DNA from: a virus
Taxonomy: Duplodnaviria; Caudoviricetes
DNA length: 51,633 bases
Virus record (IMG/VR): IMGVR_UViG_3300030329_004387
Coordinates: 1 to 51,633 of that record
Reading direction: 5' to 3' (one strand)
Shown here in pieces: positions 1 to 32,391 of this stretch. The position numbers were made by a program, and so were the translations under genes. Below the pieces are notes generated by a model. The model saw nothing but the letters and a program-made list of their open reading frames with translations, did not search any database and was not told the DNA's origin. How positions within the stretch are numbered: position 1 is the first letter of the stretch; every line of letters begins with the position of its first letter.

Positions 1-24
1 CAATAGGATAAGGAGTAGGGATAA

Positions 25-555
25 TAGCTTGAGTGTGAGAGCAAGAGCGTATTCCAGTATTATGGTTAATCCTTTAGTAATAAAGGGCGACACCAGAAAT
101 ACCATATTATTATGATATCTCAGTCATAGTTTATAGTATTAAGCGAAGTATTTACTATCTTAATAGGATAGCAAGCTACATTTACCGTTTGTCAACTAAA
201 ATAAGATAAACTAAAGATAGTTAAATCTATTTGAAAAACAGCAATGACGATTAGAAGCAAAAGGTTCTAGTACTTAAATCTCTTGAAATACCAGAGAGCA
301 TATATGACCTCAAGTTTTATATGTGTTGTAGCCAAAGTACTTATTGGGGAGGCATCTTCAATAAGCTATGAGTAACTGCTGAGATAATCTAATCGATAAG
401 AGTGGTGATCTATAATCACTGAACCTGCTAGGATACTATTCGCAAGAGTAGTGGATAAGGACAAAACCTACCATTTGAGCATAGAGAATGCTAACGTGTG
501 GGAACATAGTCCGAAAGTCTTAGTATCCGATAGTCTAATCTCAACTATCGAAGGA
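25..555 (+). ncRNA. Candidate large ornate structured ncRNA (GOLLD/ROOL-like class)
   Basis: ORF-free ~530 nt. GNRA-capped hairpins at 71-86 (GTAA) and 434-453 (GCAA). Long-range helix 116-129 with 366-386. Terminal hairpin 528-550 with loop CTAATCTCA. Confidence 0.7.
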
Positions 556-578
556 TTTTTAATCAATTGGAGAATATT

Positions 579-731
579 ATGGAAATAGTATTTTGGGTAA
601 TGATGGGTATGGGTTTGGTTTTCTTTGGTATAATTATCAAATTATTAGATAAATATGGTACTAAAGTGGACAGATCAATACATCATGATTCAAGACCTGG
701 ATCATATTATGAAATAAGTAATCGTAAATAA
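579..731 (+). CDS. Small membrane protein (50 aa), not in ORF track
   Basis: GGAG SD then ATG; hydrophobic N-terminus MEIVFWVMMGMGLVFFGIIIKLL. Confidence 0.7.
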   Translation: MEIVFWVMMGMGLVFFGIIIKLLDKYGTKVDRSIHHDSRPGSYYEISNRK

Positions 732-740
732 GGAGATAAA

Positions 741-1010
741 ATGGGTTATAATAATAAATTAAAACTAGATACAACAATGTTACAAAGTAATACAGCACAT
801 CATTTAGTGCAATTTATACAGCTACAAAGAGATACCATAAAAAGATTATTAGCACATTATGATGCTAAAAGTGATACTGGCCTTAAAGTTAAAGATATAA
901 ATATTAGAGATCTTGACGATAATTTTGAATATATTGTAAATAAACATTTAGATGCAGTCCATAAAAGAATGGGAACAAATATATTTAATAAAAATGATGA
1001 TGATGAATAA
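741..1010 (+). CDS. Hypothetical early protein
   Basis: TAAGGAG SD; 89-aa ORF. Confidence 0.75.
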   Translation: MGYNNKLKLDTTMLQSNTAHHLVQFIQLQRDTIKRLLAHYDAKSDTGLKVKDINIRDLDDNFEYIVNKHLDAVHKRMGTNIFNKNDDDE

Positions 1011-1030
1011 TTAAGCTATTGACTGGTAGC

Positions 1031-1068
1031 TAGGGAGTTGTTATACAAAGGCCCATTGCAGCTCCCTA
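1031..1068 (+). promoter_or_regulatory. Intergenic stem-loop (processing/stability element)
   Basis: TAGGGAGTTGT 1031-1041 pairs with GCAGCTCCCTA 1058-1068; no U-tract. Confidence 0.55.
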
Positions 1069-1083
1069 AATTTAGGAGGAATT

Positions 1084-1239
1084 ATGGGATATTTAAGTAA
1101 AAGGACATGGGGAAGATCTTTGATTTACTATTGTCCTGTTAATAAGAAAGTATGGCAGTTTAATAAAGATGGAAGTTATAAAATCTATCATGATATGCCT
1201 ACTTATGGATTACCTAGAAAAGTAATGGAGGATAAATGA
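1084..1239 (+). CDS. Hypothetical protein (51 aa), not in ORF track
   Basis: AGGAGG SD; MGYLSKRTWGRSLIYYCPVNKKVWQF...; ATGA overlap with the next gene. Confidence 0.75.
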   Translation: MGYLSKRTWGRSLIYYCPVNKKVWQFNKDGSYKIYHDMPTYGLPRKVMEDK

Positions 1240-1442
1240 AAAAAATATTAAAGTATTTAACAATACCAACAGTATTAATTACAGCAATTATATTTGTTGC
1301 TAAATGTGATGGAACAAAGAAGGCTAGTAATAATATTACAACTTATAAAAGCACTGGATCAAAATATGATGAAGGATCACCTCAAGATTTAATACATAAA
1401 TCACATCCGCTTTTTCCTAAAAATACTGTAGATGATGAATAA
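1236..1442 (+). CDS. Small membrane-anchored/exported protein
   Basis: GGAGG SD; N-terminal hydrophobic segment followed by Cys. Confidence 0.7.
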   Translation: MKKILKYLTIPTVLITAIIFVAKCDGTKKASNNITTYKSTGSKYDEGSPQDLIHKSHPLFPKNTVDDE

Positions 1443-1444
1443 GC

Positions 1445-2010
1445 TTAGTCCAACCAATACTTACGAGCCAATTGAGGCGGTCATGTTATTGGGTAGGGAT
1501 GATGGCCTGGATATTTTCGAGAGCATCTTGGTGGAAGATAGCTAACCATTATATCAATAAGGGCTGGGGGACGACATGGCTGATCACTTAAGACACCTCA
1601 CAAATAACAGATGGATCGCCCCAAAGAATTACCACAATGGATCGTTGTGGCATTAATTATATATGCAGACTGGTTTAACGAGAGGTGAGTGTCGACTATA
1701 GACTCTGTCAGTGGCCTATGGAGTATATATAATAGGATATGTATCAAATAAAAGAAATCATACCTAGCCTCATGGATGGCAATCCGTGGACGAAGTTGTA
1801 AAGTTTTTAGGCGATATAGTAGTAATATAACTATAAAATGAATAATATACATGTGTGGGAATATCCTTCATTACTACACCACACACTAGTTTATATTTGT
1901 AGGTTGTTGCCGTAATAAACCATGGACCCTACATAAGACCTGGCTGGCATACCCTGGGCAGAACACTTCGAGCTCGAGCGGTGCTTATGCAATGTATGCT
2001 GCGCTTTTTA
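1445..2010 (+). ncRNA. Candidate structured ncRNA region (one large or several RNAs)
   Basis: No credible + strand ORF and higher GC than its flanks. Helices 1478-1487/1573-1582, 1565-1569/1619-1623, 1594-1599/1682-1687, 1656-1664/1725-1733, 1771-1777/1782-1788, 1852-1858/1879-1885. Ends in a stem plus T-run. Confidence 0.6.
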
Positions 2011-2031
2011 TAAAATAATGGAGACAAAACC

Positions 2032-2220
2032 ATGAATGATAAATGGGAAGAAGTACCTGATGAGGATTTATGGGAAGATGGTGAATTATCACCTGGAGAA
2101 GTTCAATATAAGATTATTAAAAATGTCTTAGAAACAGGTAATTGGAAGTTAGTAAGAAGACGAGAATGGAATCCTATAGATGCTAAAAAGAAACATAAAC
2201 AAACACCAACAGTATTATAA
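2032..2220 (+). CDS. Hypothetical protein
   Basis: GGAG SD; 62 aa. Confidence 0.7.
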   Translation: MNDKWEEVPDEDLWEDGELSPGEVQYKIIKNVLETGNWKLVRRREWNPIDAKKKHKQTPTVL

Positions 2221-2229
2221 GGAGAAAAG

Positions 2230-2529
2230 ATGACTGAATTAAATGGTAAGAAATATGATTTAATGAACGCAAAAGAAAGAACTGATTATTGGACTGATTT
2301 TGCAGCTGATAAATTAGTAGGTAAGAAAATAATTAAAGTAGAATATTTTAGTAATGGAGAAGCTGAAGAATGTATGTGGTATTCTAGGCCATTATGCTTT
2401 CAATTAAATGATGGCACATGGGTATATCCTATGAGAGATGATGAAGGCAATGATGGTGGTGCTATGGCATACATTGGTGAAAAAGCTAACGAAACATTTC
2501 CAGTACTAGGAATTGAAAAGGAAGAATAA
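2230..2529 (+). CDS. Conserved-looking phage hypothetical protein (DDEGNDGG motif)
   Basis: TAAGGAG SD; motif PMRDDEGNDGGA recalled from other phage early proteins. Confidence 0.8.
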   Translation: MTELNGKKYDLMNAKERTDYWTDFAADKLVGKKIIKVEYFSNGEAEECMWYSRPLCFQLNDGTWVYPMRDDEGNDGGAMAYIGEKANETFPVLGIEKEE

Positions 2530-2539
2530 GAGGTATCTT

Positions 2540-2827
2540 ATGAAGATGAAAGAAAGAGTACAAGATTTCTTGGATGAGATAGGTTACGATTTAGGTTATA
2601 ATGAAAATTTATTACCTAAAATAGAAGACTTAGTAATTGTAGAAAAATACAATATACCTGTATGGGAATATATGGGTTATAGATCTGAAAAGAGTTTTTA
2701 TACTCGAACTAAACCGAGTGCTCTAGCTATTAAAGAAGTAATAGAAAAATATGGAATGTTAGAACGAGAATATTGGAGTAAAGATGATAAAAGACTTACA
2801 AGATTCGGAAAATATGATGAAGAATGA
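2540..2827 (+). CDS. Hypothetical protein
   Basis: Start moved to ATG 2540 after a GAGG SD. Confidence 0.7.
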   Translation: MKMKERVQDFLDEIGYDLGYNENLLPKIEDLVIVEKYNIPVWEYMGYRSEKSFYTRTKPSALAIKEVIEKYGMLEREYWSKDDKRLTRFGKYDEE

Positions 2828-2969
2828 TTTCGAAGAATTGGAGTGGTATAGCGTGTGCTGTACTGCTCCACCTTTATATGATTTGCATGATAATGGTGAA
2901 TATGAACCTTTAGGGATTTGTATGCACTGTAGAGATAATACAACTTTTGAATTATTAAAGGAGAAATAA
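2814..2969 (+). CDS. Small zinc-ribbon protein
   Basis: SVCCTAP...GICMHCRD; start moved to ATG 2814. Confidence 0.7.
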   Translation: MMKNDFEELEWYSVCCTAPPLYDLHDNGEYEPLGICMHCRDNTTFELLKEK

Positions 2970-3097
2970 TGCCAATGCCCAATCACTGTGTTGAATGCGA
3001 TAAACCTGCTCTAGTAACACATGACGGGGTTCCTTATTGTATTAAACACTGGAGAGAAAAAGAAAAGGAGGTCAGTAATGACAAAGATAATAGATGA
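2969..3097 (+). CDS. Zinc-finger microprotein (42 aa), not in ORF track
   Basis: AAGGAG SD; MPMPNHCVECDKPALVTHDGVPYCIKHW (CxxC...CxxH). Confidence 0.65.
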   Translation: MPMPNHCVECDKPALVTHDGVPYCIKHWREKEKEVSNDKDNR

Positions 3098-3353
3098 AAT
3101 AAGAACTAGAATTTCAGATTTAGATAGTATTGATGATTTAAATATTATAAGAGATATTATTTCAAATCAAAGAAAATATCTAGCTCAGAAAAATGCTTTT
3201 GGTTTAATAAAAGGCGACAAAGTTAGAATAGTAGGTTCTGGTAAAATTGATGAAGGCTTTATAGAGAAAATTAATAGAACTAGAGCTGTAGTTATGGTAG
3301 GAGATGTAGGTTGGAATGTTCCTTTTGAAATGATAAGGAAAGTTAATGAATGA
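3078..3353 (+). CDS. Hypothetical protein with KOW/SH3-like C-terminal barrel
   Basis: AGGAGG SD before ATG 3078; LIKGDKVRIVGSG...GFIEKINRTRAVV. Confidence 0.7.
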   Translation: MTKIIDEIRTRISDLDSIDDLNIIRDIISNQRKYLAQKNAFGLIKGDKVRIVGSGKIDEGFIEKINRTRAVVMVGDVGWNVPFEMIRKVNE

Positions 3354-3409
3354 GGAATATTGGTTAGATAAAGTAGATGTATGGATAGAAAATCAAATTA
3401 AAGGAGATT

Positions 3410-4036
3410 ATGATGACGGAAGAAAATCAAAAATCAGTGGAAAAATCGTCAGAACCCGCAATTGGGTCACAAGAATGGGTAAAAGATTGGATGCACAGAA
3501 GAAAAGTGCACAGAATGAGCAAAGCACAGTCACTAAAAGACTTAGCAGCATATCTAAAAGATCTCGGATATAAATATATAAGAGTATGGTATGAAGGAGC
3601 TGGTGATAGTGGTGAATGTTTTGAAGCAGAAGGTTGGAAAAAAGAAATAAATCTTGAAAAGAAAGATCATAGAGGTTGTTGGCCCGATGTATATGAATCT
3701 AAACCTTGGAATCATAATAAAGAAGAAGATTTTGATGAATGGAAAGGTATGACTAGAAATCAAAAAGATCTAGAAGAATCTTATGAACTATTTAGAAAGA
3801 ATCATCCAGATCAAAATCTTCAATCTGAATTACATTATGAACTTGTAGAACTTGTAGATTATGATTGGTATAACAATGAAGGTGGACAAGGTGAAGTAGT
3901 ATGGGATCTAGAGAAAGAAGAATTCCGTGTAGATGGACAACAAAATAGATATGCAGCTGTAGATGTAAAAGAAACATACTTTATGGATGGTAAAAATCCT
4001 GAAGTTTGGCATGGTGATGAGGTTTATGAAAGATGA
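3410..4036 (+). CDS. DUF6878-like protein
   Basis: Motifs YEGAGDSG and DWYNNEGGQG; AAGGAG SD. Confidence 0.7.
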   Translation: MMTEENQKSVEKSSEPAIGSQEWVKDWMHRRKVHRMSKAQSLKDLAAYLKDLGYKYIRVWYEGAGDSGECFEAEGWKKEINLEKKDHRGCWPDVYESKPWNHNKEEDFDEWKGMTRNQKDLEESYELFRKNHPDQNLQSELHYELVELVDYDWYNNEGGQGEVVWDLEKEEFRVDGQQNRYAAVDVKETYFMDGKNPEVWHGDEVYER

Positions 4037-4380
4037 AAGCCTTTAATCATTGTAAATCAAGTGTAAAATACTTTGGTGGTAAAGAAATGGATTATCATCA
4101 AATACATGCATGGTTTGATAAAAGTAAGGATCATTATGGCGATATTAGACATCGTGCTTTAAGACATCATACACAAGGTATAGCAGAATGTCAATTATGG
4201 TTTGGAATAACAATAAAGAACTCTGATGGTAAAGATATACCAGTACGTTCTATAGCAGAACAACATATAAGAGAGGATCTAGGCTTTATTCCTACAGTTC
4301 AAGATTGGCTTAAAGAGATCAAACCAAAACCTTGGATGGCAAGTACTAAGAAGAATACTAAGAAGATGAATCTAATGTAA
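4033..4380 (+). CDS. DUF6915-like His-rich protein
   Basis: H..SS...FGG...DY..IH.WFD.SK....D.RHRALRHH..GI and VR.IAEQH..EDLG..P...DW pattern. Confidence 0.75.
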   Translation: MKAFNHCKSSVKYFGGKEMDYHQIHAWFDKSKDHYGDIRHRALRHHTQGIAECQLWFGITIKNSDGKDIPVRSIAEQHIREDLGFIPTVQDWLKEIKPKPWMASTKKNTKKMNLM

Positions 4381-4385
4381 AATTA

Positions 4386-4682
4386 AGGGAACAATGTAGC
4401 GTGGATATCCTGACATCTAACTAAAAGCAACGTGTTGGACTTGTTCCCTAATAAATTACAAGTATGTAACTAGTTTAGTAGCAGTCCTGAGAAGTTACAC
4501 TAAGTTTATTCCAGGAACTTTATATAAGCGTGCAATAAGACCATTAGCGTAAGCTTCGGCAGTACTATTATAAAGCACTACTATTAAACGAAAAAAAAGC
4601 TTGTATAAATTTAGGGAGGCAGTGCGTAACCTGCAGGTAGACGAATGATCATAAGCTTCGCATCATTTACTGTCTCCTTAAA
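4386..4682 (+). ncRNA. Three tandem closed-stem structured RNA cassettes
   Basis: Closing stems 4386-4394/4441-4449, 4457-4463/4599-4605 and 4610-4623/4669-4682, joined by short AT linkers. Confidence 0.6.
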
Positions 4683-4686
4683 TAAC

Positions 4687-4715
4687 TTGGAAAGTTTGTC
4701 CGCTTTTAGTAAATT
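4687..4715 (+). promoter_or_regulatory. Sigma70-like promoter for the replication operon
   Basis: TTGGAA-N17-TAAATT upstream of the ERF gene. Confidence 0.5.
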
Positions 4716-4741
4716 ATAACCCCCATTAGAAGGAGAAATCA

Positions 4742-5206
4742 GTGGAAGAAAAGAATGAAATCAAAGGGATAGCTATCCCTAAAGCAGTATTTAGTGAACG
4801 AAGACAAGAAATATGGAAATCAAATCAATTAGATAAATTAGGAGAAGCATTAGCTAAAGCACAAGGTGAAATGAAAGGTGCTAAAAAAAGCAGTGTTAAT
4901 CCATTCTTTAAATCTAATTATGCTGATCTACATACAGTAATAGAGTCTTCATTCCCATTTCTAAGTAAATATGGATTATCTGTAATACAAGGAAATGATA
5001 GTGATGAAAAATCATTTTATGTAACTACTATGTTGTTGCATAATTCTGGTCAATGGATTAAATCAAAATTGAAAATGCCAATAACTAAAGCAGATGCACA
5101 AGGAGTAGGAGCTACTATTACTTATGCTAGAAGGTTTGCTTTATCTGCAATGGTAGGTATTGCTCAATATGATGATGATGGTGAATCGATAACTAATCAT
5201 AAATAA
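4742..5206 (+). CDS. erf: ERF-family ssDNA annealing protein
   Basis: ALAKAQ...NPFFKSNYADL; H.SGQWI; QGVGATITYARRFALSAMVGI...DDDG. GTG start with AAGGAG SD. Confidence 0.9.
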   Translation: MEEKNEIKGIAIPKAVFSERRQEIWKSNQLDKLGEALAKAQGEMKGAKKSSVNPFFKSNYADLHTVIESSFPFLSKYGLSVIQGNDSDEKSFYVTTMLLHNSGQWIKSKLKMPITKADAQGVGATITYARRFALSAMVGIAQYDDDGESITNHK

Positions 5207-5215
5207 GGAGAATGT

Positions 5216-5773
5216 ATGGCAATTAAAACAATGTCAGCTTCCACAGGAGGAAGTAAATTCGAAGAAGGATGGCATCAAGTTAATATAACTAAAGCAGAAT
5301 ATGGAAAGTATGAAGGAGATGTTCCTGGTACTGACAAAAACTATTTAGATATATGGTTTGAAGATTATCCTGATAATATGAATCTTCGTGTATATGAAGT
5401 ATTCAACAAAACAACTAATGAAGAGTTCAAAGTTGCTAACATATTCAAATATGCCAATGCTGGTATAGTTGGTGTGTTAAAAGATCCAAATGGTAAGCAT
5501 CCATTAATTCAATTTGATGATGAGCCTAAAGGTTTAATAGGTAAAACTATAAATATCTATATATATAAAGAGAATAAAACAGGTAATAATTATTCTCGTA
5601 TATTTGATAATATAGCACCTATTGTACAAGAAGGTGAACATTTATCATTTAAAGCTACAGATGTAGATTCAATTAAATCTGGAGTTGAGAAAAGAGTAAA
5701 AGGAATGTTAGAGAAAACAGCAGCTACAGCTAATGGAGTTGCTCAATCTGAACCATTTGCTAATCAATTTTAG
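5216..5773 (+). CDS. Probable single-stranded DNA-binding protein (OB-fold, DUF669-like)
   Basis: Follows ERF; FEEGWHQVNITKAE N-terminal motif; aromatic C-terminus. Confidence 0.55.
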   Translation: MAIKTMSASTGGSKFEEGWHQVNITKAEYGKYEGDVPGTDKNYLDIWFEDYPDNMNLRVYEVFNKTTNEEFKVANIFKYANAGIVGVLKDPNGKHPLIQFDDEPKGLIGKTINIYIYKENKTGNNYSRIFDNIAPIVQEGEHLSFKATDVDSIKSGVEKRVKGMLEKTAATANGVAQSEPFANQF

Positions 5774-5885
5774 GATGACCTGGATTAGTCGGGTTTACTA
5801 ATATCCTAAATATTCTGTTGGGAATCAGTAGCGAAATGCGGGTAGGACAACACGGGTGTCGTGTCGGAATAATTAGGTAAACTTA
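5769..5885 (+). promoter_or_regulatory. Structured intergenic leader with alternative pairings
   Basis: Stems 5769-5776/5803-5810, 5777-5783/5789-5795 and 5811-5817/5865-5871; alternative 5791-5802/5872-5884. Confidence 0.45.
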
Positions 5886-5896
5886 AAGGAGAGAAA

Positions 5897-6193
5897 ATGA
5901 CAGTAAGAGAACATATTACAAGAGAGTTAGAAAACTTAGAAAACTCACCAATAAATACATTCAGAACATCAGATATACAAGAATTATCATTTGAAGGAAA
6001 GATGGAATTTGGTAAGTATTTAGGCAGTCCTGGAACATATACTAGAGAGTTTAGAAGAATGAGAACTGATGGTATATTAGTAGTAGATAAACTTAATAGA
6101 AAAGAAAGACAACAAGTTTGGAGACTGATAAATGTTGGAAAAATAGAAGATCATTTAGATGATCATATTGATTATTCAGATTTACCATTTTAA
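5897..6193 (+). CDS. Hypothetical protein, possible winged helix, acidic DLPF tail
   Basis: AAGGAG SD; SPGTYTREFRRMR helix; C-terminal DYSDLPF. Confidence 0.7.
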   Translation: MTVREHITRELENLENSPINTFRTSDIQELSFEGKMEFGKYLGSPGTYTREFRRMRTDGILVVDKLNRKERQQVWRLINVGKIEDHLDDHIDYSDLPF

Positions 6194-6202
6194 GGAGATA
6201 AT

Positions 6203-7936
6203 ATGATTAAAGAGTATGCATTTGGATTAGCTAATAGGCATCATTTTGGAGATGTAAGTGATGTTGAGAAATACGCAGGTATGGCTCAAGATACATTTAT
6301 GTCTTTATGGGATTATGATGCTCATGTAGTTGATTATGTTAAAGAAAAAGGCGGTTTATCTGGATATGATGGTATGTTATATATGCCAGATGAATTTATC
6401 TTAGATGTTGATGGAACTAATCCTAAACAAGCTAAAGATAAAACTATAGCATTGACTATAGAATTAGATGATTTATGTATACCTTTTCGTATATATTTCT
6501 CAGGAACAGGATTTCATTTAGGAATACCAGGCGATGCTTTCAGATGGAAGCCATGTCCAGACTTACATTTAAAAGTCAAGGATGAATTAAAAGCTAGAGG
6601 TATTTATGAATGGGCGGATCCATCAGTTTCTGATAAAACTAGAATCATCAGAGTTGTAAATACATTAAATAGTAAATCTAAATTATGGAAAATACCTATA
6701 AGTTTAGAAGAATTGCATAAACCAATAGAAGATATACAAGAGCTAGCTAAAACGAAAAGAGCAATTAATAAATGGACTACATTGGAATGTGAACCTATAT
6801 TTGATGTGTTGGAAAGAAAAAGTAAAGCAAGTGATAAAAAGTTTGAATCAATATCATTAGGAAAGAATCCTGATCCTGTGTGGTATCCATGTATTCAAAA
6901 AATGATGGAAGGCACAGCTCAAGGTTCAAGGCATCAAATAGCATTGCGTATTGGTGCGTTTCTAAGATGGAGATATCCAGAACATGTTGTAAGACTTGTA
7001 ATGGAAGATTGGCGACAAAGAGTAGATATTGCTTCACATCCTTTTAGTAAAGCTGAAATGGATAAAATAGTTACTGATTGTTATGAAGGCCATAATGGTA
7101 ATGGTTATAATTATGGATGTAGTGATATTCATATGGATAAACATTGTCAATCAACTTGCAGATTGTATAAATCAAAAGTATCACAAAACACTATGGATGC
7201 AAAAACTATGGAAAAAGAATTAGTTAACTTTTTAACTAGAAATCATAATCCAATAGATATAGGAGCTCCATGGGGACAAAAATTTCCTGTATATCCAGGT
7301 GAAGTAGTTATATTACAAGCTCCACCTAAATCTATGAAAACAATGTTGTTACAGAATTTAGTTAATAGATTCAAACGTAATACATATTTCATGGAAATGG
7401 AAATGAGTCCAAGGCAAATGTGGATGCGATTTGTTATGATAGAAAATAAATGGTCCGAAGAAGAACTAAAAGACTATTATAGCAAATATGCAAATGGAAT
7501 TAGTAAGGATTTTGATTGGTTGACAGTGGACTATAGTAGTTGTTATCCACAAGAGTTGAGTAAAAGAATTCTAATGTTACCAAGAAAACCTGAAATAGTA
7601 GTTGTAGATCATATGGGATTATTTAAATCCCAAAAGCATGATAATAATATGAAAGTAGAGGAAGTTTCACAATCATTAATGGAACTTGCTGTTCAGAATA
7701 ATATTATAGTGTTTGCTGTATCAGAAATAACTAAATCAGCTTTTACAGAGGGTATGAATATAGCTTCATCTAAAGGTTCATTTAGAGTTGCATATAATGC
7801 TAATAAAGTATTATCACTAACACCATTTAAAGATGATAACAATTTAATTAAAATGTTAAAGTTAGAATGTACAGCTAATAGAGAAAAAGAAAACCTTGAC
7901 CTGCAATTACCAGTAAATAATTCAGTGATAGGATAA
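6203..7936 (+). CDS. AEP primase-polymerase / Cys-rich PriL-like domain / RecA-fold (DnaB-like) helicase fusion
   Basis: AEP motifs ILDVD, FSGTGFH, DKTRIIR; Cys cluster PCI...GC...HC...C; Walker A-like APPKSMKT; Walker B IVVVDH. Confidence 0.85.
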   Translation: MIKEYAFGLANRHHFGDVSDVEKYAGMAQDTFMSLWDYDAHVVDYVKEKGGLSGYDGMLYMPDEFILDVDGTNPKQAKDKTIALTIELDDLCIPFRIYFSGTGFHLGIPGDAFRWKPCPDLHLKVKDELKARGIYEWADPSVSDKTRIIRVVNTLNSKSKLWKIPISLEELHKPIEDIQELAKTKRAINKWTTLECEPIFDVLERKSKASDKKFESISLGKNPDPVWYPCIQKMMEGTAQGSRHQIALRIGAFLRWRYPEHVVRLVMEDWRQRVDIASHPFSKAEMDKIVTDCYEGHNGNGYNYGCSDIHMDKHCQSTCRLYKSKVSQNTMDAKTMEKELVNFLTRNHNPIDIGAPWGQKFPVYPGEVVILQAPPKSMKTMLLQNLVNRFKRNTYFMEMEMSPRQMWMRFVMIENKWSEEELKDYYSKYANGISKDFDWLTVDYSSCYPQELSKRILMLPRKPEIVVVDHMGLFKSQKHDNNMKVEEVSQSLMELAVQNNIIVFAVSEITKSAFTEGMNIASSKGSFRVAYNANKVLSLTPFKDDNNLIKMLKLECTANREKENLDLQLPVNNSVIG

Positions 7937-7941
7937 ACAGT

Positions 7942-8004
7942 TGAAAGAGATGTAAGTCCCGAATGTCCTAGCTATATGCTGAATGACCTAGGCATTCTCT
8001 TTCA
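7942..8004 (+). promoter_or_regulatory. Intergenic stem-loop with internal direct repeat
   Basis: TGAAAGAGA 7942-7950 pairs with TCTCTTTCA 7996-8004; GAATG(T/A)CCTAG at 7961 and 7981. Confidence 0.5.
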
Positions 8005-8021
8005 TACAAATAGGAGAGAAT

Positions 8022-8834
8022 ATGAATCCATATCAAGAAATAAGAAAAGTACCATTAGATTATAGTGGTATACAATCATCAGCTTATTCCGTTCAAAGAT
8101 TAGATGAAGAAAAAGGATGGAAAGAAGCGGGAGTGGTAGGAGCACATTATATGTTATTACCAAACCAAGAAGTAAAAGATATTGCAAGTGATATAGTTGA
8201 GTCAGCTTATATAGATTTTGAATTAGACAAAGAGTTCTTTAATGGTAAGAATTTTATGTTATCGTATAAAGCTGTAGATAGTATAGCAACTGTTGATCAT
8301 ACTGCAAAAGATGAAGATATAGATAAGTTAAATCTAGGTATTCAATTTTGGAATAGTTATGACGGTTCAAGATCATTTGGATTTTCATTAATGCTGTATA
8401 GATTAATATGTACTAATGGAATGATGAGTAAGCAATATCTACAGAACAATAGATTTAGACATGCTCCTGGTTCTGAAGATTGGAATACACAGTTAGAATC
8501 TATGGTGCATCTTATAAATGCTACTCAAGATGGAGATAATAATAGTGTAAATACTATGATTAATGGTATTAAAGAGCTAAATGATTATAGAGTTACATCA
8601 AAGAATTTAGGCAATATTAGGCACAATTTCCTTAAAGATATACCAACAGGTGTATGGGGTGAAATAACTGATAAATTCCTAGATCCTAATGGCGAATACT
8701 ACTCAGATACTAATGGTTGGGGATTACTTAATTCTGCTACAGATATATTGTGGCATAAGAAGAAACCAACACTTGCATCATATAATCAAAATGCTGTTAT
8801 AACAGATGGTTTAATTAACGCAATATGTGCTTAA
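8022..8834 (+). CDS. DUF932/DUF945-family protein
   Basis: NSYDGS...YRLICTNGM motif; W.L.N..T near the C-terminus. Confidence 0.85.
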   Translation: MNPYQEIRKVPLDYSGIQSSAYSVQRLDEEKGWKEAGVVGAHYMLLPNQEVKDIASDIVESAYIDFELDKEFFNGKNFMLSYKAVDSIATVDHTAKDEDIDKLNLGIQFWNSYDGSRSFGFSLMLYRLICTNGMMSKQYLQNNRFRHAPGSEDWNTQLESMVHLINATQDGDNNSVNTMINGIKELNDYRVTSKNLGNIRHNFLKDIPTGVWGEITDKFLDPNGEYYSDTNGWGLLNSATDILWHKKKPTLASYNQNAVITDGLINAICA

Positions 8835-8857
8835 TTAGAAGCGGATGATACGTCGGA

Positions 8858-9014
8858 AAATTAAGAGAGCCAATAACTGGTCCTGTAAGAATGTGGACTC
8901 ATTCATCGCGTTGAATGTAGGGTTCGAATCCCTTGTCTTACATCTTGTATGGGTTTTATCCCTACTAACACATCTAGCGGACAAGAAAAGGAATATGTGA
9001 GGCTCTCTTAATTT
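8858..9014 (+). ncRNA. Structured RNA containing a tRNA-like domain
   Basis: Perfect 14-bp closing stem 8858-8871/9001-9014; acceptor-like stem 8884-8890/8936-8942; T-arm AGGG-TTCGAAT-CCCT 8919-8933. Confidence 0.7.
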
Positions 9015-9042
9015 AATAAATAATAATATTAGGAGAATAAAA

Positions 9043-9132
9043 ATGGCTAAATTACCTAAAGAACTAAAGATATTTCGAAAAATAGTTAGAAAAGTAAACA
9101 GATTGATTTGGGGAAAGAAAAAGAGAAAATGA
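9043..9132 (+). CDS. Basic microprotein (29 aa), not in ORF track
   Basis: AGGAG SD; MAKLPKELKIFRKIVRKVNRLIWGKKKRK; ATGA overlap with the next gene. Confidence 0.6.
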   Translation: MAKLPKELKIFRKIVRKVNRLIWGKKKRK

Positions 9133-9221
9133 AAATTGGAATTTGTATGAATTGTAAGCACCCTATGGCATTTGGAGAATGTAATAATAAATGTCCTAAT
9201 TGCAATTTTGACTATGGTTGA
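9129..9221 (+). CDS. Cys-rich zinc-finger microprotein; TGA at 9219 may be recoded (extends to 9350)
   Basis: MKIGICMNCKHPMAFGECNNKCPNCNFDYG then TGA; frame stays open to TAG 9348-9350. Confidence 0.7.
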   Translation: MKIGICMNCKHPMAFGECNNKCPNCNFDYG

Positions 9222-9261
9222 GAAATAGAAGTATCTCGTGAAGATATAAAGGAGAGAAAAA

Positions 9262-9618
9262 ATGACAAGAAAAAAGATGGGAACATTGATAAAAAAGATA
9301 TTCCTGAAAATTCAAGAAACAAGAGAGTCTGGGCAGAAAGAATACGCTAGAGATATAGATAATGCTTTTGCTAATTTTGAAAGAATTGGTAAAAATTTAA
9401 ATATAACTAGAGAAAAAGTATTGCTAGTATATCTGTTAAAACATATTGACGGTATTTGTTCATATGTTGAAGGACATGAAAGTCAGAGAGAAGATGTAAG
9501 AGGAAGATTAACTGATGCTATAGTATATCTTTGTTTATTATGGGGGATGTGTGATGAACCTATATATCCTGGAAAGTCTAAACATTACTATAGAAGGTTA
9601 AAAAATGAGATTAACTGA
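9262..9618 (+). CDS. All-alpha nucleotide-modification-associated / NTP pyrophosphatase-like protein (Nmad1/DUF1599-like)
   Basis: GQKEYA...FANFE...LLKH...E...GRLTDAIVYLCLL pattern. Confidence 0.6.
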   Translation: MTRKKMGTLIKKIFLKIQETRESGQKEYARDIDNAFANFERIGKNLNITREKVLLVYLLKHIDGICSYVEGHESQREDVRGRLTDAIVYLCLLWGMCDEPIYPGKSKHYYRRLKNEIN

Positions 9619-9766
9619 ATATTTTCATTTTATAACAAGAACAGACATAGGAATAGCTCATAATCCTAAAGAAAATGAATATACACATTTTACACCTTGG
9701 ACAATACATAAAAGGGAAAGATACCTTTATCAATGTATGTTACGAGGTAAAACACCTGTTAAATAA
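9605..9766 (+). CDS. Hypothetical protein (53 aa), not in ORF track
   Basis: ATG overlapping the upstream gene end; fills the operon gap. Confidence 0.55.
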   Translation: MRLTEYFHFITRTDIGIAHNPKENEYTHFTPWTIHKRERYLYQCMLRGKTPVK

Positions 9767-9777
9767 AAGGAGGCAAT

Positions 9778-9927
9778 ATGCCAACAAAAAAGAAAGTTGA
9801 GAAAAAAGAACCAGAAGTAAAGGCAATTCATATAAATGAAATATGGAATGTCATTGAAGAAATGCAGAAAAATATAAATCATATTAATGATAAAATATCA
9901 AGAATATCAAGTAGACTAGGAATATAA
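9778..9927 (+). CDS. Hypothetical coiled-coil protein (49 aa), not in ORF track
   Basis: AGGAGG SD; MPTKKKVEKKEPEV...RLGI. Confidence 0.7.
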   Translation: MPTKKKVEKKEPEVKAIHINEIWNVIEEMQKNINHINDKISRISSRLGI

Positions 9928-9936
9928 GGAGAAATC

Positions 9937-10221
9937 ATGGGAAAGAAAAAACCAACAATGAATGAAATGAAAAATGTAGTAACTAATTTAATAATGCATG
10001 TTAATACTATTGATAAGCATTTACAAAAAATGGATACTGCTGTTTTCAACTATATTAAATTCAAAGGTGATGAAGAAGGATATATAGAGTATATGACTAA
10101 AATAACAAAGGAGAAATCAGATGAAATTTCAGGAAAGAGCAATAAAGGAAATAGAAGAACTAAAAATGAAGCTAAAGATACAAGAAATGAAGTTTCAAAA
10201 GACGACTCAGGAGTTAAATGA
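9937..10221 (+). CDS. Hypothetical protein
   Basis: TAAGGAG SD. Confidence 0.7.
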   Translation: MGKKKPTMNEMKNVVTNLIMHVNTIDKHLQKMDTAVFNYIKFKGDEEGYIEYMTKITKEKSDEISGKSNKGNRRTKNEAKDTRNEVSKDDSGVK

Positions 10222-10387
10222 TTATATAGCAGCTTTAGAATCTGAAAAGATAGTTAGAACTAAATCAAATAATGTAAATAAAATATTATCTGAAGCAGAT
10301 GAAGCATTGAAAAGATATAACATGAAATTAAAAAAAGAAGGAGAAAAATATGCCAAGCAAAAACAAAGCAAGAGGAAACAGACTTGA
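10121..10387 (+). CDS. Hypothetical coiled-coil protein
   Basis: AAGGAG SD; heptad pattern. Confidence 0.65.
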   Translation: MKFQERAIKEIEELKMKLKIQEMKFQKTTQELNDYIAALESEKIVRTKSNNVNKILSEADEALKRYNMKLKKEGEKYAKQKQSKRKQT

Positions 10388-10706
10388 AAGATTAGTAGTT
10401 AATCAGGCTAAAGAAGCAGGTCTAAGTGCTATTAGAGCATATGCTAGTAATGGCATGTCTTTAGGTGAAGCTGAAGATGTAGATGTTAAAATAGATCAAT
10501 ATAAAGGTCAATGTAAGATGCGTAAAAAGATTGCGTCCTTTATGAAACCTCCTGAAAGTTGTGATATAGCTCTAATTAAAGAAGATAGAGAAGATACTTT
10601 AGTTGTTATAAGATATCCTGATTTTCTAAAAATGTTAATTGATTTAAATGGATATAGTAATATGGCTTCAGATCTTGAAGAGCAACTAAGGGAGGCGCAA
10701 GAATGA
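10350..10706 (+). CDS. Holliday junction resolvase (PD-(D/E)XK, Hjc-like)
   Basis: SKNKARGNRLER...DV.I...QCK motif. Confidence 0.8.
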   Translation: MPSKNKARGNRLERLVVNQAKEAGLSAIRAYASNGMSLGEAEDVDVKIDQYKGQCKMRKKIASFMKPPESCDIALIKEDREDTLVVIRYPDFLKMLIDLNGYSNMASDLEEQLREAQE

Positions 10707-10879
10707 ACTATTATGAAAAAGAAAAAAGAGCAATGCAAAAAAGCATGTTAAAGTTGTCTCACTTTCTTTTGTCAGCTATTAATGTGGTTGATAAAACGAA
10801 TTTTCAGGAAACTTTACATCTAATCGATAAACAAACGCAGAATATACGAAGAAAATTTACAAACTATTATAATAAATAA
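10703..10879 (+). CDS. Hypothetical protein (58 aa), not in ORF track
   Basis: GGAGG SD; ATGA overlap. Confidence 0.6.
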   Translation: MNYYEKEKRAMQKSMLKLSHFLLSAINVVDKTNFQETLHLIDKQTQNIRRKFTNYYNK

Positions 10880-10883
10880 ATAT

Positions 10884-10916
10884 AGGGGGTGTCCGTTGCT
10901 CCTGGATGCCCCTTTA
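10884..10916. terminator. Terminator hairpin between convergent arms
   Basis: GGGGTGTCCG/TGGATGCCCC stem flanked by A/T runs at the strand switch. Confidence 0.75.
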
Positions 10917-10917
10917 T

Positions 10918-13900
10918 TTAAAAATTAGCTAAACTTAATAAAGCTCTATCTCTAGTTCTTCTACCTCTTCCTCTATCTCTTCCTCTTCTTCTTCTTCTTC
11001 TTTTTGATCTAGGATCTTCTACTTTTGTCTCAGGTAATATATTTATACCTTCAGCAATACCTGGTGATTCTTCATCTCCATATATAAGACCCATTCCTTT
11101 ATCTACTGTAGCTTTTCTCCAATTAGTAATCCATTTAGGCTTATACATACCAGTTTCAATTCTAAAGGCTTTATCACTTTGCCCTTTAGCTATTGCAGGA
11201 ATAGTTTTCCAAGCAGTTCTAGCTCCTTGTATATTAAATATTCTTGCTACTTGATACCACCATTGCGGATCATCGGGATCATAATTTAAATTTCTATGTT
11301 CTTCATATTCTTCACCAGTCAAATCCATAAAATCAGTTAATTCAGCAATAGTTAATAAATCGCTGACAAAAGGTCCTAAATTACCTGTTATAGGGTTTTT
11401 TCCATAATAAGCTGAATAATGCTTAATTTGAGCTTTTTCATCTCCATCATGATTCCAATTATTTACATAATCAAGTAATTTTTTAGCTTCTTCTATTATC
11501 GGATTATCTATTAAACCACTAGGTGAACTTCTATCAGCTAAAGACATAGTCCCATCTTTTAAATATTTATCTTCATCAAATGGAGTATAGCCAAATGCAG
11601 ATGCCATTCCACCTATATCATAATCACTTACTAAAGCTACTAATGCAGGCATCAATGAATATAAAGACATTAATCTCATGCCTTGTTGAATTGCAGGATT
11701 AATAATCATCTTTTTACCTTTTTGATTTAAGGCTCTATTTCCCATTGCTAATGGATCTTCAACAGTAAATTTAAAACCTTTTACATCTCTAGCCATATCT
11801 CTTAATATATTGTATTGTAAATCAAAAAATGCAAATTTAAAATGTTGGAATTGTCCAATAACTTGACCTGCTCCCATTCCAGTGCCTCTTTGAAGTACCT
11901 TAGCTTTCGCCCAGTTATCATAATCAAAGTGAAGAGTTTTAACCATTTCAAATGCTTGATTACCTGATATTTTTTCTATATAATCCCAAAGCTGTTCCAC
12001 TGTAGGCTCTTTGCCATTTCTTTCAAAAAGTTGTTTTCTATGAAATTCTAATCTATTAGATTCTGCTGTAAATGAATGAGCAAATTGCATTTTAAATGTT
12101 TTAAGTCTATTTGCATTTTCAGCCCATTGTTGAGAACCAACTTTGCCTAGAATAGTATATTTAGAACTCCAATCAGCTCCTTTAGCCATACCTTCAGCTA
12201 TTTTCTTCAAGGTATTACCTTTTTCTAAAACAAGTTTACCTTGTCCATCTACTCCAAATCCTGGTGGAATTAACATAACATCTAATGAGCCTCCTGTAGC
12301 AGCAGAAATACTTGCTCCTTCAGCTTTTTCTCCAATCATCATACCAAATCTTTTTAATTGCCTATTATACATCATTGAATTTGTTATTTCTGCACCTTCA
12401 TACATACGAGAAGTAGTAGTATAAAATTCTTCAGTAATTCTATAACCTCTTTTACCGAACATAACCCAATTTAACAAACCTTGTGTTCTATTTTTTATAC
12501 CACTTTTAAAACTAAAACCTAATTTTGAAATGTATTCAAATGAATTAATTATTCTAACAGCGTGATCTAAATTACCTGTTGGAGCACCATTATTCATTAA
12601 TGCACTATCTTTGATTTCAGTAAGCATATCTAATAAGTAAGTAGCATGTTCGGCTATTTTAACCTTGCCTTTACCGTGTTCATTTCTTCTTACAGCATCT
12701 ACTAAATGAGCTGCAACAGATGAAAAACTATGATTTATTCTAGATCTCATATTAAATGAAGCAACATCATGTACATATTTATTTAAATAATATATTGGAT
12801 CTAATGCTACCCAAGCATCTGTACTGCCCTTTTGCTTTAATCTATTGCTTATTGCTTCTACTGATAAACTATTTTCTATTTCTCTTTGAATATCTGATGC
12901 CTGTTTTCCTTTATAGCCAGGATTATTTCTATCTTTAGCAAATTGCACTAAATTAGACATCATATCAGTTAATTCTATTACATAATCTGGAGAATACTTA
13001 GTTATTGATTTTTCACCATTTGCTCTAACTCCTATTGCAGTTAAAGGATTTCCATCAGAATCCTTTTCTTGTAATACATAAGGTCTTTTTGTTCGAGTTT
13101 TTGGATCATATATATAAAAATCTTTTGGATTTGCTGCTGTTATAATGCCATTTTCATTTCTATATTGATTGCTAAGAGTACTTTTATCAATATTACTTTG
13201 TATTAAAAGAGACTCTATTTGCTGACTAATTGTTTCATAAGCTTTTATAAGAGTTTTTTTAGTAGGATCTGATTCAAGTAAACCTTCTATTGTTCTTCTT
13301 GCAGCAATAGAGCCATTTAATAAATCTTTCATACTATCCATTCTTAATATATCCCAAGCTTGTCTAACTTTATGCTCTGCTGGAGTTTCTGGTTGAGTTT
13401 TAAATGTAAGCAAATCATTGAATCTTCGCAACATTTGACCACCTACTGGATCTCCTTCACCTCCACTGCCTAAATGATCTTTAAGGGCATTTAAAGCCTT
13501 TAATTGCTCTTTTGAACCTGGCTTAGAAACTAATAATTCTCTTTCTAAATTTTGAAAATATTTATATTGTTCTTTAGAATAAGTTTTACCTGCCGCTATA
13601 TTTAATGGATGTGTTGGGTCTAAAAACATTTCAAACATACCATCAGTCATTTTTTTAATATGTTTTGCACCATCTTTAAGTAGTTTTTGATTATAACTAA
13701 CAGCTTCTCCTACTTGAGTAACAAAATCTTCTCCACCTTTAAATCCTTTTGCTAAAACTTTTGGTAGCTTAAAATAGGTCTCAAAATAGCCAGCTTGTTT
13801 ACCTAGTTTAGGTAGAAATTCCTTTTTTATAGCTTTTGAAAAAATTTCTATATCTTTAGGGTTAAGCCTTATTGTTGCAACATCAAATTCTGTTCTTGTA

Positions 13901-14070
13901 TACTTTTTCCAAAGCCATTGAAATGTTTCTCTATCTGTCCATCCCATTTCTTTTGCATAAGGATTTTTCATCCAATCTCGAACATTCTTATCTTTCATTA
14001 AAGTCTTAAAATTTTTTCTTTGCTCTTTGGAATCTATATTAGTTCCAGGCATACATGCGCCACCAGCCAT
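10918..14070 (-). CDS. Large internal virion (ejection) protein, Arg-rich C-terminus
   Basis: 1050 aa, last in the ejection cluster; GQFQHFKFAFF-type motif; RRRRRRGRDRGRGRR tail. Confidence 0.65.
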   Translation of the reverse strand: MAGGACMPGTNIDSKEQRKNFKTLMKDKNVRDWMKNPYAKEMGWTDRETFQWLWKKYTRTEFDVATIRLNPKDIEIFSKAIKKEFLPKLGKQAGYFETYFKLPKVLAKGFKGGEDFVTQVGEAVSYNQKLLKDGAKHIKKMTDGMFEMFLDPTHPLNIAAGKTYSKEQYKYFQNLERELLVSKPGSKEQLKALNALKDHLGSGGEGDPVGGQMLRRFNDLLTFKTQPETPAEHKVRQAWDILRMDSMKDLLNGSIAARRTIEGLLESDPTKKTLIKAYETISQQIESLLIQSNIDKSTLSNQYRNENGIITAANPKDFYIYDPKTRTKRPYVLQEKDSDGNPLTAIGVRANGEKSITKYSPDYVIELTDMMSNLVQFAKDRNNPGYKGKQASDIQREIENSLSVEAISNRLKQKGSTDAWVALDPIYYLNKYVHDVASFNMRSRINHSFSSVAAHLVDAVRRNEHGKGKVKIAEHATYLLDMLTEIKDSALMNNGAPTGNLDHAVRIINSFEYISKLGFSFKSGIKNRTQGLLNWVMFGKRGYRITEEFYTTTSRMYEGAEITNSMMYNRQLKRFGMMIGEKAEGASISAATGGSLDVMLIPPGFGVDGQGKLVLEKGNTLKKIAEGMAKGADWSSKYTILGKVGSQQWAENANRLKTFKMQFAHSFTAESNRLEFHRKQLFERNGKEPTVEQLWDYIEKISGNQAFEMVKTLHFDYDNWAKAKVLQRGTGMGAGQVIGQFQHFKFAFFDLQYNILRDMARDVKGFKFTVEDPLAMGNRALNQKGKKMIINPAIQQGMRLMSLYSLMPALVALVSDYDIGGMASAFGYTPFDEDKYLKDGTMSLADRSSPSGLIDNPIIEEAKKLLDYVNNWNHDGDEKAQIKHYSAYYGKNPITGNLGPFVSDLLTIAELTDFMDLTGEEYEEHRNLNYDPDDPQWWYQVARIFNIQGARTAWKTIPAIAKGQSDKAFRIETGMYKPKWITNWRKATVDKGMGLIYGDEESPGIAEGINILPETKVEDPRSKRRRRRRGRDRGRGRRTRDRALLSLANF

Positions 14071-14085: not shown

Positions 14086-17000
14086 TTACCAACATGATCT
14101 ATCAAGCTCTCTAAAATAATCCATTACATCACCTTTACCTGCTTCTGTACCATGATATATCTTACTTCTATAAGTATGAAGAGGCTCAAATATATTTCCT
14201 CCTTTAAATGAATAATCATTTATACTGCCCCACATCTTATTAACTACATTAGTAACAATATGTGCGGGAGGAGCTCCATCTAAACTTGTAACAGTCATAT
14301 CTACAGTCGTTCTATATAATTCAAAAGGATCTAAAAAATAAGACCCCATTAAATAATCTGATGCTATTTTTACAGCATCTTTATTCAAGTTGACATCTGT
14401 CATAAAACTAGGCATTTCTTTCATTGGAGGAAGTAATCTAAAATCACTCATTTCTCTAGTAATTCTTTCAAAAGCAAAAACATCACCTTTTAATGAAGGA
14501 TCATACTCTCTTATAAAAGCCTTTTTAAATCTATCATTTATTGTTTGATACCAATCTTTAGCAGTAGCAGAATCTATTACTCTACTTCCTTGACCATCCA
14601 TAGCTCTTTGTAGAAATTGAAATACTAATGACTCATTTCTTTTATTTGAATTAAATTTAGGAGTTAGACTTGAACTCTTTCTTAAATCATTTCCTACAAT
14701 ATGAAAAACATTCCTATCTGCTCTTGGAGTTAAAAGCATATGGATGAATTGTTGCTGCATTATAGTTCCATAAGGTCCCCCTAAATCTCTAGCCATATCA
14801 ATATAATCCATTAATATTTGCAAATCCTTTTCAGCAGCTAATCCAAATCTTGCCGCATCTTTAGGTCTAGATGGGTCAATTACTTGATTTTCTCTTGCAT
14901 TTAAAGCTTCATTAAATCGTTCTACTAATTCATTCAATCTAAATTCATCTACTTTATCTACTCTTCTATCTAATCTAGCAAAAGCATTATGCATAGCTCT
15001 TCTTACTCTAGCTGTATTATCAAAACCCATTTCCAATCTTTTAGGATTCTTAACTATAACATCTCCCGCTCTCCAAGTAACCTTTTCACCAGGCTTAAAA
15101 AGCATCATTTGTTCTGCTCTTTTTTTATCACCTTTACCTACTAGTCTAAAAATACCTATAGTATCATTTTTGTATACTCTAGGTTTTTTACTATCATATT
15201 TTTCAGGTTTATGCATATGATATATAGTATTAGGGTCATTGACCTGTTTATTGAATTCTAAAATAATTGCATTATATTTATCGCCTTCTGATTTCCAATA
15301 TCTATAAACAGCAGTATCCTCTTTGCCTCTAGATACCAAGTCTTTTAAAACATCATTTACTTGGTCTAATTTATACTTAATAGTAGACACGGTTAATATT
15401 TTAGTTTGATCGTTTAAAATGCCATTAATAGCTTTATTTACATTATCAGGAGTAGCTTTTGTAATTCCTGCTAAAATTTGACCTAAACCATCATCTATAG
15501 AAGGTATACCATTTTTAAATATATTAGAATTTAATTGCTTTCTCAAGCTTGATAACGCTACTATTATAGGAAGTTCAGATCTAGCGGCTGTATTAGATGA
15601 ATTAAAATGATTATCTCCTAAGAAGTGTAATAATGGATCTACAGTACTTCTAAGTTCATTACCTACTAACTTGCCAGAGTCTTTATCCCAGCGATAGCCT
15701 GTCATTTTAATAGTATTTAAAATATTCTCATATCTATTAACCATTTCAAAAGCTGACATTTTTCTTGAAGTTCCATCTGTAAAATGATCCATCATTAAAT
15801 TTAAATTATGCAATTCGCCTAAAGGTTGTATAATACCCTGTCTAATTTTTTTATGTATTAACTGACCTTCAGTAGACATTGCATCAAAAGATACCTTTTT
15901 TCCTACTTTATCTTGTATCCCTTGATATTGCCATATTTCAAGAAAACCTAAATCTTTATTTTCCCATATAAGCTTATCTAATTGTATATCTCTAATATCT
16001 TGAGGTTTTTTATATATATCAATAGTAGCCTTTATTAATCTTTTCATATATTCTAAAGATTGAACTAATTCCATACCATCTTTAAGAGCTATTTTATATC
16101 GAACTCCTTTTATATCATTTACTTGAAAACCTAATTCTGGTCCTATTTGGAATCTATCAGTTCTATTTTTGCCACCTTTTTGCCATCCAGGAAGAAATAT
16201 ATCTCCTTCTCTAACAGAGTAATATTGAAGCATTGTAGATAATACTGAAACTTGTCGAATAAGCGAACCTCTTTTTGCATCTAAAAATTTTATAGTATCT
16301 GTATATTGCCCTTGATTTCTATCTAAACCTACTTCAATTAATGCTCTTTCAAATAAAGCATCTGTAGATTGCTGATATCCAGAAACATTATACATCTCTT
16401 TAATAACCCTGCCAGGCAATGTAAACATACTTGCAGATTTATCTAGATCAAAATCAGCATCTTGAGGATCAATAACATCTAATAAATTCATTTCACTAAC
16501 AGGTCCACGTCTTTTATCTAATAATTTTTCAACTCTTGTAATAACCCAATCGTTTATACCTGCTTTAGGTTGTCTTAAATCAACTTTACCTAAATGTATT
16601 TGAGAATACATATGCTTTTTATCTTTTCGTCCTGATGCTAATAAATTATATGCAGCATCTGGATTATTCTTACCATTTAAATGAGAATCTAATATATATT
16701 CAGTAAATTCATTTTTATATTCACTTCTTGTACCATTTAACATCATAGCCAAGTCACCTACTGTCGTAATACCTTCATCAATTTTAATCCATTCAATTAA
16801 TGATTTCATATCTGCTTCTAAAGCTTTTTCTAATCTATTTATAGCGTTAGCATTTTCTTTTATTGCTATCTTAGTGCTTAAATGTTGTCCAATAACTGTA
16901 AGAGTGCCATCGGGATTTAAGGAGACAGCAAAATCATTTCCTTCAATATCCTTTCCAAGACGTTCTAATTTATTTTCTTTTACAAAATCTTTAGTCACTT

Positions 17001-32252: not shown

Positions 32253-32391
32253 TATCTTCCTCAATTTCTTTGGGAGAGGTGTATACGAGTGTCATTGATG
32301 TATCATTAACTATGTCAGTATGTGAAGGAGGTGATGAGAACGACCTCTCCCAAAAGTTTTTAGGTATTGTTATATAACCTACTAAAGTCAT
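32245..32391 (-). CDS. Hypothetical protein (48 aa), not in ORF track
   Basis: TAATG coupling to the upstream gene; overlaps the start of the next gene. Confidence 0.45.
   Translation of the reverse strand: MTLVGYITIPKNFWERSFSSPPSHTDIVNDTSMTLVYTSPKEIEEDNA

Follow-up and report, generated by a model that had tools for sequence, protein, structure and literature searches.

What kind of gene occupies the very start of an uncultured virus genome when no sizeable protein can be read from it? The genome in question is an entire virus record from IMG/VR (51,633 bp; annotated as linear, with an estimated completeness of 91%), which was analysed over its full length (hereafter, the window). Between positions 1 and 566, it holds no ORF longer than 45 aa (ORFs of 30 aa or more considered), and the first-pass annotation had read positions 25–555 as a large structured non-coding RNA, being either a short variant of GOLLD, a family reportedly described by Weinberg in 2009, or a new class. 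The structured, non-coding character of this stretch is borne out: its + strand folds with a minimum free energy of −132.4 kcal/mol, against −111.4 ± 6.0 for shuffled sequences (z −3.52), and is better than all 100 shuffles, while its − strand reaches a z of −2.18 only, with 2 shuffles out of 100 as good. The RNA is assigned to the + strand because G-U pairs are frequent. The 3′ end at about 550 also stands, but not the 5′ end at 25, as homology extends to base 1 and past the contig start. Altogether, window positions 1 to about 550 (+) very probably represent a phage GOLLD RNA minus its 5′ quarter, which belongs to a divergent, compact subclade.

Family assignment and the Rfam cut-off

A default Rfam scan of the window, based on gathering scores, returned nothing. 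When matches were instead taken by E-value, the GOLLD model (RF02032) aligned over its whole length (model 1–416 of 416) with positions 141–547 (+), at 112.6 bits and an E-value of 2.8e-30, in agreement with the family resemblance proposed in the first-pass annotation. The default scan missed this match because its 112.6 bits lie under the gathering cut-off of RF02032 (150 bits), which is an operational rule and not a biological feature. In the alignment, 12 positions of the model's first hairpin are lost to a 19-nt gap, which falls in model 1–62 and to which we return below. As for ROOL, there is no gathering-score match in the window and none at E-values up to 10 in 1–2200, where the search at that threshold yielded GOLLD and three chance-level small-RNA matches only.

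Related phages were identified through the terminase. Such relatives number at least 600 in IMG/VR, of which the best 80 (78–93% amino-acid identity) were retained; GOLLD was searched for in 50 of these best 80 and found in six (137–176 bits). With 6 of the 50 records carrying it, and two of the six searched records whose completeness is 90% or higher, GOLLD is accessory in the lineage. The six copies have in common a 20-nt motif (motif B), made of a GUAUG-GUAA-CAUAC hairpin and the letters AAUA, which ends exactly at the window start. Scanning for motif B led to 17 related loci on uncultured marine phage contigs, and the 11 new records that were searched (L133 not among them) all match GOLLD, at 88–171 bits. 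When the window is included, 17 uncut copies could be scored: they range from 112.6 to 176.1 bits, nine of them pass the 150-bit cut-off, and the window copy is the lowest. For comparison, we assembled a canonical set of 33 viral loci found by a degenerate pattern derived from conserved 3′-domain blocks. All 33 match RF02032, 32 of them passing at 198–340 bits, whereas the clade reaches 113–176 bits; the remaining locus is cut by a contig end.

At face value, a score under the Rfam cut-off and the lack of any blastn match for window 1–600 in the GenBank phage collection might point to a large RNA of a new class, without relation to GOLLD. This reading is barely credible, and we count it as already refuted: the full model aligns at an E-value of 2.8e-30, the helices and the invariant terminal loop are the same as in GOLLD, and sibling copies exceed the cut-off. 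Judged by its sequence, the RNA is a divergent, compact member of the known family GOLLD. It shares with the family the complete 3′-domain model: both have the hairpin with an A-rich loop, followed by an A-rich linker, a long-range helix and GNRA hairpins, and both end with the UAAUCUCA loop. A variable 5′ domain upstream, partly recognisable in some canonical GOLLDs, would be a further resemblance. The titles and abstracts covered by a literature search mention no compact GOLLD subclade in marine phages of about 50 kb. The sub-cut-off score thus means that GOLLD is overlooked by routine annotation in an abundant lineage of uncultured marine phages.

Covariation and architecture of the RNA

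The window was aligned with 15 relatives at 51–80% identity, after two duplicates (L124 and L128) and one cut copy (L132) had been dropped. The RNAalifold consensus contains 134 pairs, 96 of which show compensatory change. In this structure, 94.4% of the cells are paired, compared to 75.9% in shuffled alignments and 33.4–42.4% when the partners are slid by 1–3 columns; pairs with changes on both sides number 96, against 57.3 (shuffled) and 24–36 (slid), and the covariation score amounts to 0.556, against 0.214 (shuffled) and 0.064–0.106 (slid). On any of five measures, none of 500 shuffles attains the observed value, and the margin is large even though the structure was derived from the tested sequences themselves, which is a bias in its favour. 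Of the 88 consensus pairs lying wholly inside the window, 86 are formed; strands 1, 11–16, 243–247 and 423–425 are orphans. In all 17 relatives, the likeness with the window extends from base 1 through the terminal hairpin (1–550, +), after which a ribosome-binding site (RBS) and unrelated first ORFs follow.

The distal 5′ domain (1–140, +) lies outside the Rfam model and is supported by covariation. It begins with orphan 3′ strands (1–16, +): base 1 closes the cut GNRA hairpin of motif B, and positions 11–16 have their partner upstream of the contig, in a six-pair helix of which three pairs are compensatory in the relatives. Next come a helix (18–23/50–55), a GNRA hairpin (70–87) and a hairpin at about 110–129. 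The GNRA hairpin had already been noticed in the first-pass annotation (71–86), and it is retained in the 15 relatives, with 96.9% of cells paired and both-side changes at four of six pairs. In contrast, the long-range helix once drawn between 116–129 and 366–386 is paired in just 66% and 56% of cells, and its 5′ arm is better explained by the local hairpin, which has six compensatory pairs out of eight and a score of 0.394 (at most 0.193 when slid).

The Rfam model begins with a hairpin (141–190, +; model 1–62) made of an inner stem (145–159/167–179) and an A-rich loop (160–166). The 19-nt gap disrupts the outer stem of this hairpin, and helix 11 has 9 of 12 pairs compensatory. It is followed by an A-rich inter-domain linker (191–242, +; model 63–136, unpaired), which varies in both length and sequence among relatives, and by AAUGA (243–247, +), the orphan 3′ strand of the helix closing the linker (helix 12), whose five pairs are all compensatory in the relatives. 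The core of the 3′ domain (248–395, +) is delimited by the long-range helix 248–255/388–395 (helix 13, marked as a pseudoknot in Rfam; eight of eight pairs compensatory), which encloses hairpins and a junction (328–379) reduced to a single hairpin. With respect to GOLLD membership, the 3′-domain helices are maintained by compensatory change. The junction is three-way in the Rfam consensus, with two neighbouring hairpins (model 232–265); in the cmscan alignments of the window and of four relatives, one of these is deleted or replaced, in contrast to the canonical locus L007, which has both.

Further downstream (404–524, +; helices 19–24) are a hairpin (404–420) and a helix (427–433/518–524) that encloses a GNRA hairpin (434–453) and a second hairpin (459–512), the latter with a 33-nt insertion specific to the window. 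The GNRA hairpin at 434–453 is another element of the first-pass annotation that holds in the 15 relatives (96.9% of cells paired; both-side changes at five of eight pairs), but the pseudoknot suggested between 431–438 and 521–528 does not, being paired at shuffle level (52.1% vs. 50.9%); residues 431–433 pair with 518–520 instead, in a well-supported helix. Finally, the terminal hairpin (528–550, +) has a stem with seven of seven pairs compensatory, carries the loop UAAUCUCA and is followed by a U-rich tract. The model ends with GUAaUCUCA, and the loop is conserved as in the model (GUAAUCUCA), window 535–543 reading CUAAUCUCA; T536, A537 and T539–A543 are invariant in the 16 rows of the alignment. 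A kissing contact between this loop (539–543) and a 5′ loop (36–40) had been proposed to close the molecule. It would pair in 82.5% of cells, but none of its five pairs is compensatory; positions 539–543 never vary while the 5′ side does, and the contact finds no backing from covariation.

In the relatives, about 380 nt lie upstream of the linker, with covariation, and the window has only the last ~190 nt of them. A covariance model built from window 1–140 and its equivalents (R1) matches six of the 33 canonical loci at E-values from 1.5e-4 to 0.07, with three at about 2e-4 and three at 0.07, always on the GOLLD strand and 243–306 nt before the 3′-domain pattern or abutting the Rfam match. The 27 other loci give nothing, which fits the lower conservation published for the 5′ region. 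With nhmmer, a profile of the whole 5′ part finds 3 of the 33 canonical loci (E-value about 5e-10), and one restricted to the 5′ part held by the window finds none of the 33.

The contig start and the 19-nt gap

The window opens on the last letters of the motif B hairpin, whereas the relatives remain conserved for another 176–204 nt upstream of the equivalent of its base 1. There, their conserved part starts with a small covarying tetraloop hairpin (in UUCG, GCAA and GUAA versions), beyond which they are unrelated. With 20 nt of flank ahead of this first motif counted in both figures, the RNAs of the relatives measure 715–842 nt (median 739). Allowing up to 3 mismatches, no occurrence of the 5′ motif was found in the window, and the non-coding tail at the opposite contig end (51465–51633, +) is devoid of homology to the missing 5′ part. 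Moreover, a 26-nt stretch from the window start has no match in viral or metagenome contigs, and this search yielded no contig spanning the break.

Public sequencing runs, all of them marine when they match the stretch, were compared with window 1–2200. In the RNA library X3, a metatranscriptome contig of 637 nt (record 17) has 137 nt ahead of window base 1, and from its position 138 on corresponds to window 1–481 without any other letter than a 19-nt insert. Both this contig and the DNA run X2 have these 19 nt behind window 176 (junction 176/177, +), and all 15 aligned relatives also have letters there, the gap in the window row of the alignment (A3) spanning columns 498–516. The contig from X2 begins at window 25, the best-matching DNA run (X1) is fragmentary in the GOLLD region, and X5 contains only fragments of relatives that are 90–95% alike. 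The gap removes the 5′ strand of the five-pair helix closing the linker, the 3′ strand of which remains at 243–247; in our own reading of the register, the insert of X2 and X3 contains UCAUU, the exact complement of these positions.

Compared with its relatives, the window therefore misses about 175–200 nt of the 5′ domain since the contig starts inside the RNA, and, sequence against sequence, the size of about 530 nt is a product of the contig start and not a demonstrated short variant. The idea of a short GOLLD-like variant thus loses its ground, as relatives span 715–842 nt and the X3 contig runs longer upstream by 137 nt. The real RNA of this phage would be about 740 nt long. The truncation would be an assembly artefact at a variable spot, and the 19-nt gap is probably one too. 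Two relatives (L133 and L123), otherwise divergent, have a nearly identical insertion of ~80 nt at the equivalent of window 23/24, inside the helix 18–23/50–55, which is why we regard this region as a variable spot where assemblies break. More generally, when a contig opens directly on a "short variant", truncation should be the first suspicion.

As the deposited copy lacks both the ~175–200 nt at its 5′ end and the 19 internal nt, the gene could nevertheless be damaged in this very genome. One would then be dealing with a true decayed GOLLD remnant, its 5′ part lost, 19 nt deleted and its function gone. Such a remnant would agree with the absence of both pieces from the deposited sequence, with an Rfam score that ranks last among the 17 copies scored, with a GOLLD that is dispensable in the phage group (6 of 50 related records) and with the fact that neither 176/177 nor the window start is bridged among the listed X1 contigs. 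We nonetheless deem it very unlikely, since 86 of the 88 internal pairs are intact and the orphan strand 243–247 still complements the X2/X3 insert (in the same reading of the register), while the X3 contig, identical over 481 nt, has the 19 nt and the 137 nt upstream. Furthermore, one X1 contig (record 3) starts at 177 and its six preceding letters disagree with the window, which is what another sequence at that place would produce, and the record is rated 91% complete. An RNA cut by assembly thus remains our preferred reading.

Genomic setting, neighbours and possible function

The GOLLD RNA of the window is phage-encoded, as are the other members of the family, its record containing a terminase, a portal, a major head protein and an endolysin among the late genes of the − strand. 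It immediately precedes the early/replication block of the + strand (~567 to 10,700; Erf, primase-helicase, RusA-like), opened by a 54-aa ORF (567–731, +; GGAG at 570–573), and this position, just 5′ of the first ORFs of the block, is common to the lineage, whose uncultured marine genomes measure ~48–55 kb. In contrast, many canonical copies reside in records of 100–480 kb. The terminase points to no named relative, the best identity with cultured phages being just 25–26%. A host clue was sought with motif B in species genomes and discarded: its sole match, in Marinilabilia rubra, compares with about two expected by chance, and the locus has no GOLLD match and a weak R1 match (16.6 bits, E-value 0.031).

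No tRNA gene was detected in the window, which excludes the upstream flank of the RNA, and the missing tRNA neighbour mentioned in the first-pass annotation would thus be an effect of the contig end. Among the relatives, a tRNA-Met ends where the RNA begins in L129, a 90-nt tRNA with anticodon UUA (tRNA-Stop according to ARAGORN) abuts the 5′ end of the RNA in L132 (648–737, −), and a tRNA-like element (a match to the Rfam tmRNA model) ends at the RNA start in L131. In L122, a tRNA-Met is found ~310 nt upstream of the RNA, and in the closest relative (L137) a 54-aa ORF precedes it instead. Some relatives are thus like GOLLD in having the RNA directly 3′ of a tRNA-Met or of another tRNA-like element, and there is no tRNA array within the window as deposited. 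Having a tRNA or tRNA-like gene ending at the RNA start in three relatives provides a concrete idea for the formation of the 5′ end.

Other tRNA genes were observed around GOLLD loci. Unusual tRNAs lie near GOLLD in L124 (7760–7836, +) and L130 (3313–3389, −), one of them, with a four-base anticodon call (tata), being located ~760 nt downstream. The canonical locus L007 (340 bits) has a tmRNA gene (4386–4803, +) at ~700 nt from GOLLD and, from ~4 kb on its other side, ten tRNA genes (9849–12948, −), a classic tRNA-island context unlike that of the window. Separately, a conserved AT-rich motif (motif A, ATATATATACCAACTTATAC and variants) occurs 630–975 nt upstream of motif B in six relatives: L115 (~700–734), L120 (362–396), L119 (681–715), L117 (349–386), L118 (2852–2880, −) and L116 (3068–3125, −). 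The window does not contain it, even with 3 mismatches allowed, and it may be the early promoter of the phage group.

According to the published description, the 5′ region of GOLLD varies whereas its 3′ region is conserved in all members; both phages and prophages encode the RNA, frequently in the vicinity of tRNAs, and its expression reportedly increases in the course of phage lysis (bioRxiv 10.1101/2024.12.08.627333). The same source describes env-38, a marine GOLLD of 833 nt located 3′ of a tRNA-Met, as a closed 14-mer cage of D7 symmetry, in which the caps are formed by the 5′ domains and the rings by the 3′ domains, the linker pointing inward, and proposes a role in encapsulating or sequestering cell components, such as tRNAs or ribosomes, in lytic growth (bioRxiv 10.1101/2024.12.08.627333). 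The clade is more compact than env-38 (~715–842 nt, median 739 as delimited, vs. 833). Large ornate RNAs forming RNA-only cages also include the phage-associated ROOL, which is distinct in sequence and fold according to the same source, and without Rfam match in the window at gathering scores; OLE is likewise a large ornate homo-oligomer (bioRxiv 10.1101/2024.12.08.627333), but it is bacterial, dimeric and protein-associated, and has no Rfam match here either.

The RNA of this phage may be transcribed rightward together with the early genes, its 5′ end being possibly set, in the relatives, by processing of the abutting tRNA. By analogy with env-38, its 5′ part would fold as a cap domain and its 3′ part as a ring domain, and the RNA might self-assemble into a multimeric cage, made of RNA only and enclosing the A-rich linker, so that a cage-type assembly could be expected here by homology. 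In X3, the contig carrying GOLLD has a depth of 60, against at most 8 for the other pieces, and no listed contig covers 482–1481, although contigs cannot rank expression and presence among those of an RNA library is no proof of transcription.

Alternatively, the main role of the RNA might be in cis: as a structured leader, it would control or stabilise the early transcript instead of forming cages as a free molecule. Indeed, in the window as in the relatives, the last hairpin is followed within ~15–35 nt by an RBS and by the beginning of a first ORF that varies, and no intrinsic terminator-like site was found in 1–1600. Yet the RNA is conserved while the downstream ORF differs among relatives, a fold of 740 nt and 25 helices far exceeds known leaders, and the RNA is homologous to GOLLD, of which env-38 assembles alone into a cage. 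A cis-acting leader is hence an improbable explanation, and the free cage-type RNA remains the one that we favour.

The clade consists of natural compact variants (715–842 nt, with one fewer junction hairpin), which could reveal the contacts that assembly requires. If the lost junction hairpin were one of the subunit-bridging loops of env-38, these RNAs might adopt a different stoichiometry or an open shell, the abutting tRNA might serve as a processing signal for release or as cargo, and the RNA might form, with the element described below, some 1 kb downstream, an RNA-based module heading the early genes; we offer this picture as a speculation, itself rather doubtful.

Further into the window, positions 1443–2031 (+) are ORF-poor, with a G+C content of 0.40–0.43 in a genome at ~0.30, and contain a conserved core (~1580–1900) also present in five other distinct loci: L122, L123, L135 (of which L128 is a duplicate), L138 and L139. 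A scan with a 25-nt motif retrieved six loci, two of them in records without GOLLD match (G095 and G034). RNAalifold on six sequences yields 36 pairs, 13 with compensatory change, and highlights a covarying hairpin at window 1632–1650, also listed as terminator-like, whereas an invariant seven-pair hairpin near 1852–1885 lies just before the next RBS in relatives. No Rfam match was obtained for this element at E-values up to 10, and, despite the conservation, the minimum free energy of 1443–2031 is not better than that of shuffles (z −0.39). Pieces of it (1482–1670 and 1734–1793) appear in the RNA-library run X3. It is possibly an undescribed structured RNA.

Two additional features of the genome deserve mention. 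Three very long ORFs of the late block, at 14086–23565, 28002–32264 and 10918–14070 (−), encode 3159, 1420 and 1050 aa, respectively, and belong to no PHROG family at an E-value of 1e-5. Finally, an island of ~50 nt (2037–2090), at the start of ORF 2032–2220, accumulates a summed contig depth of 69 in X1 and 362 in X2, against ~8 (X1) and ~84 (X2) in the adjacent sequence, and numerous contigs diverge on either side of it. Being common to L123, L124, L128 and L130, the flanks of which differ, it looks like a conserved junction of mosaic modules.
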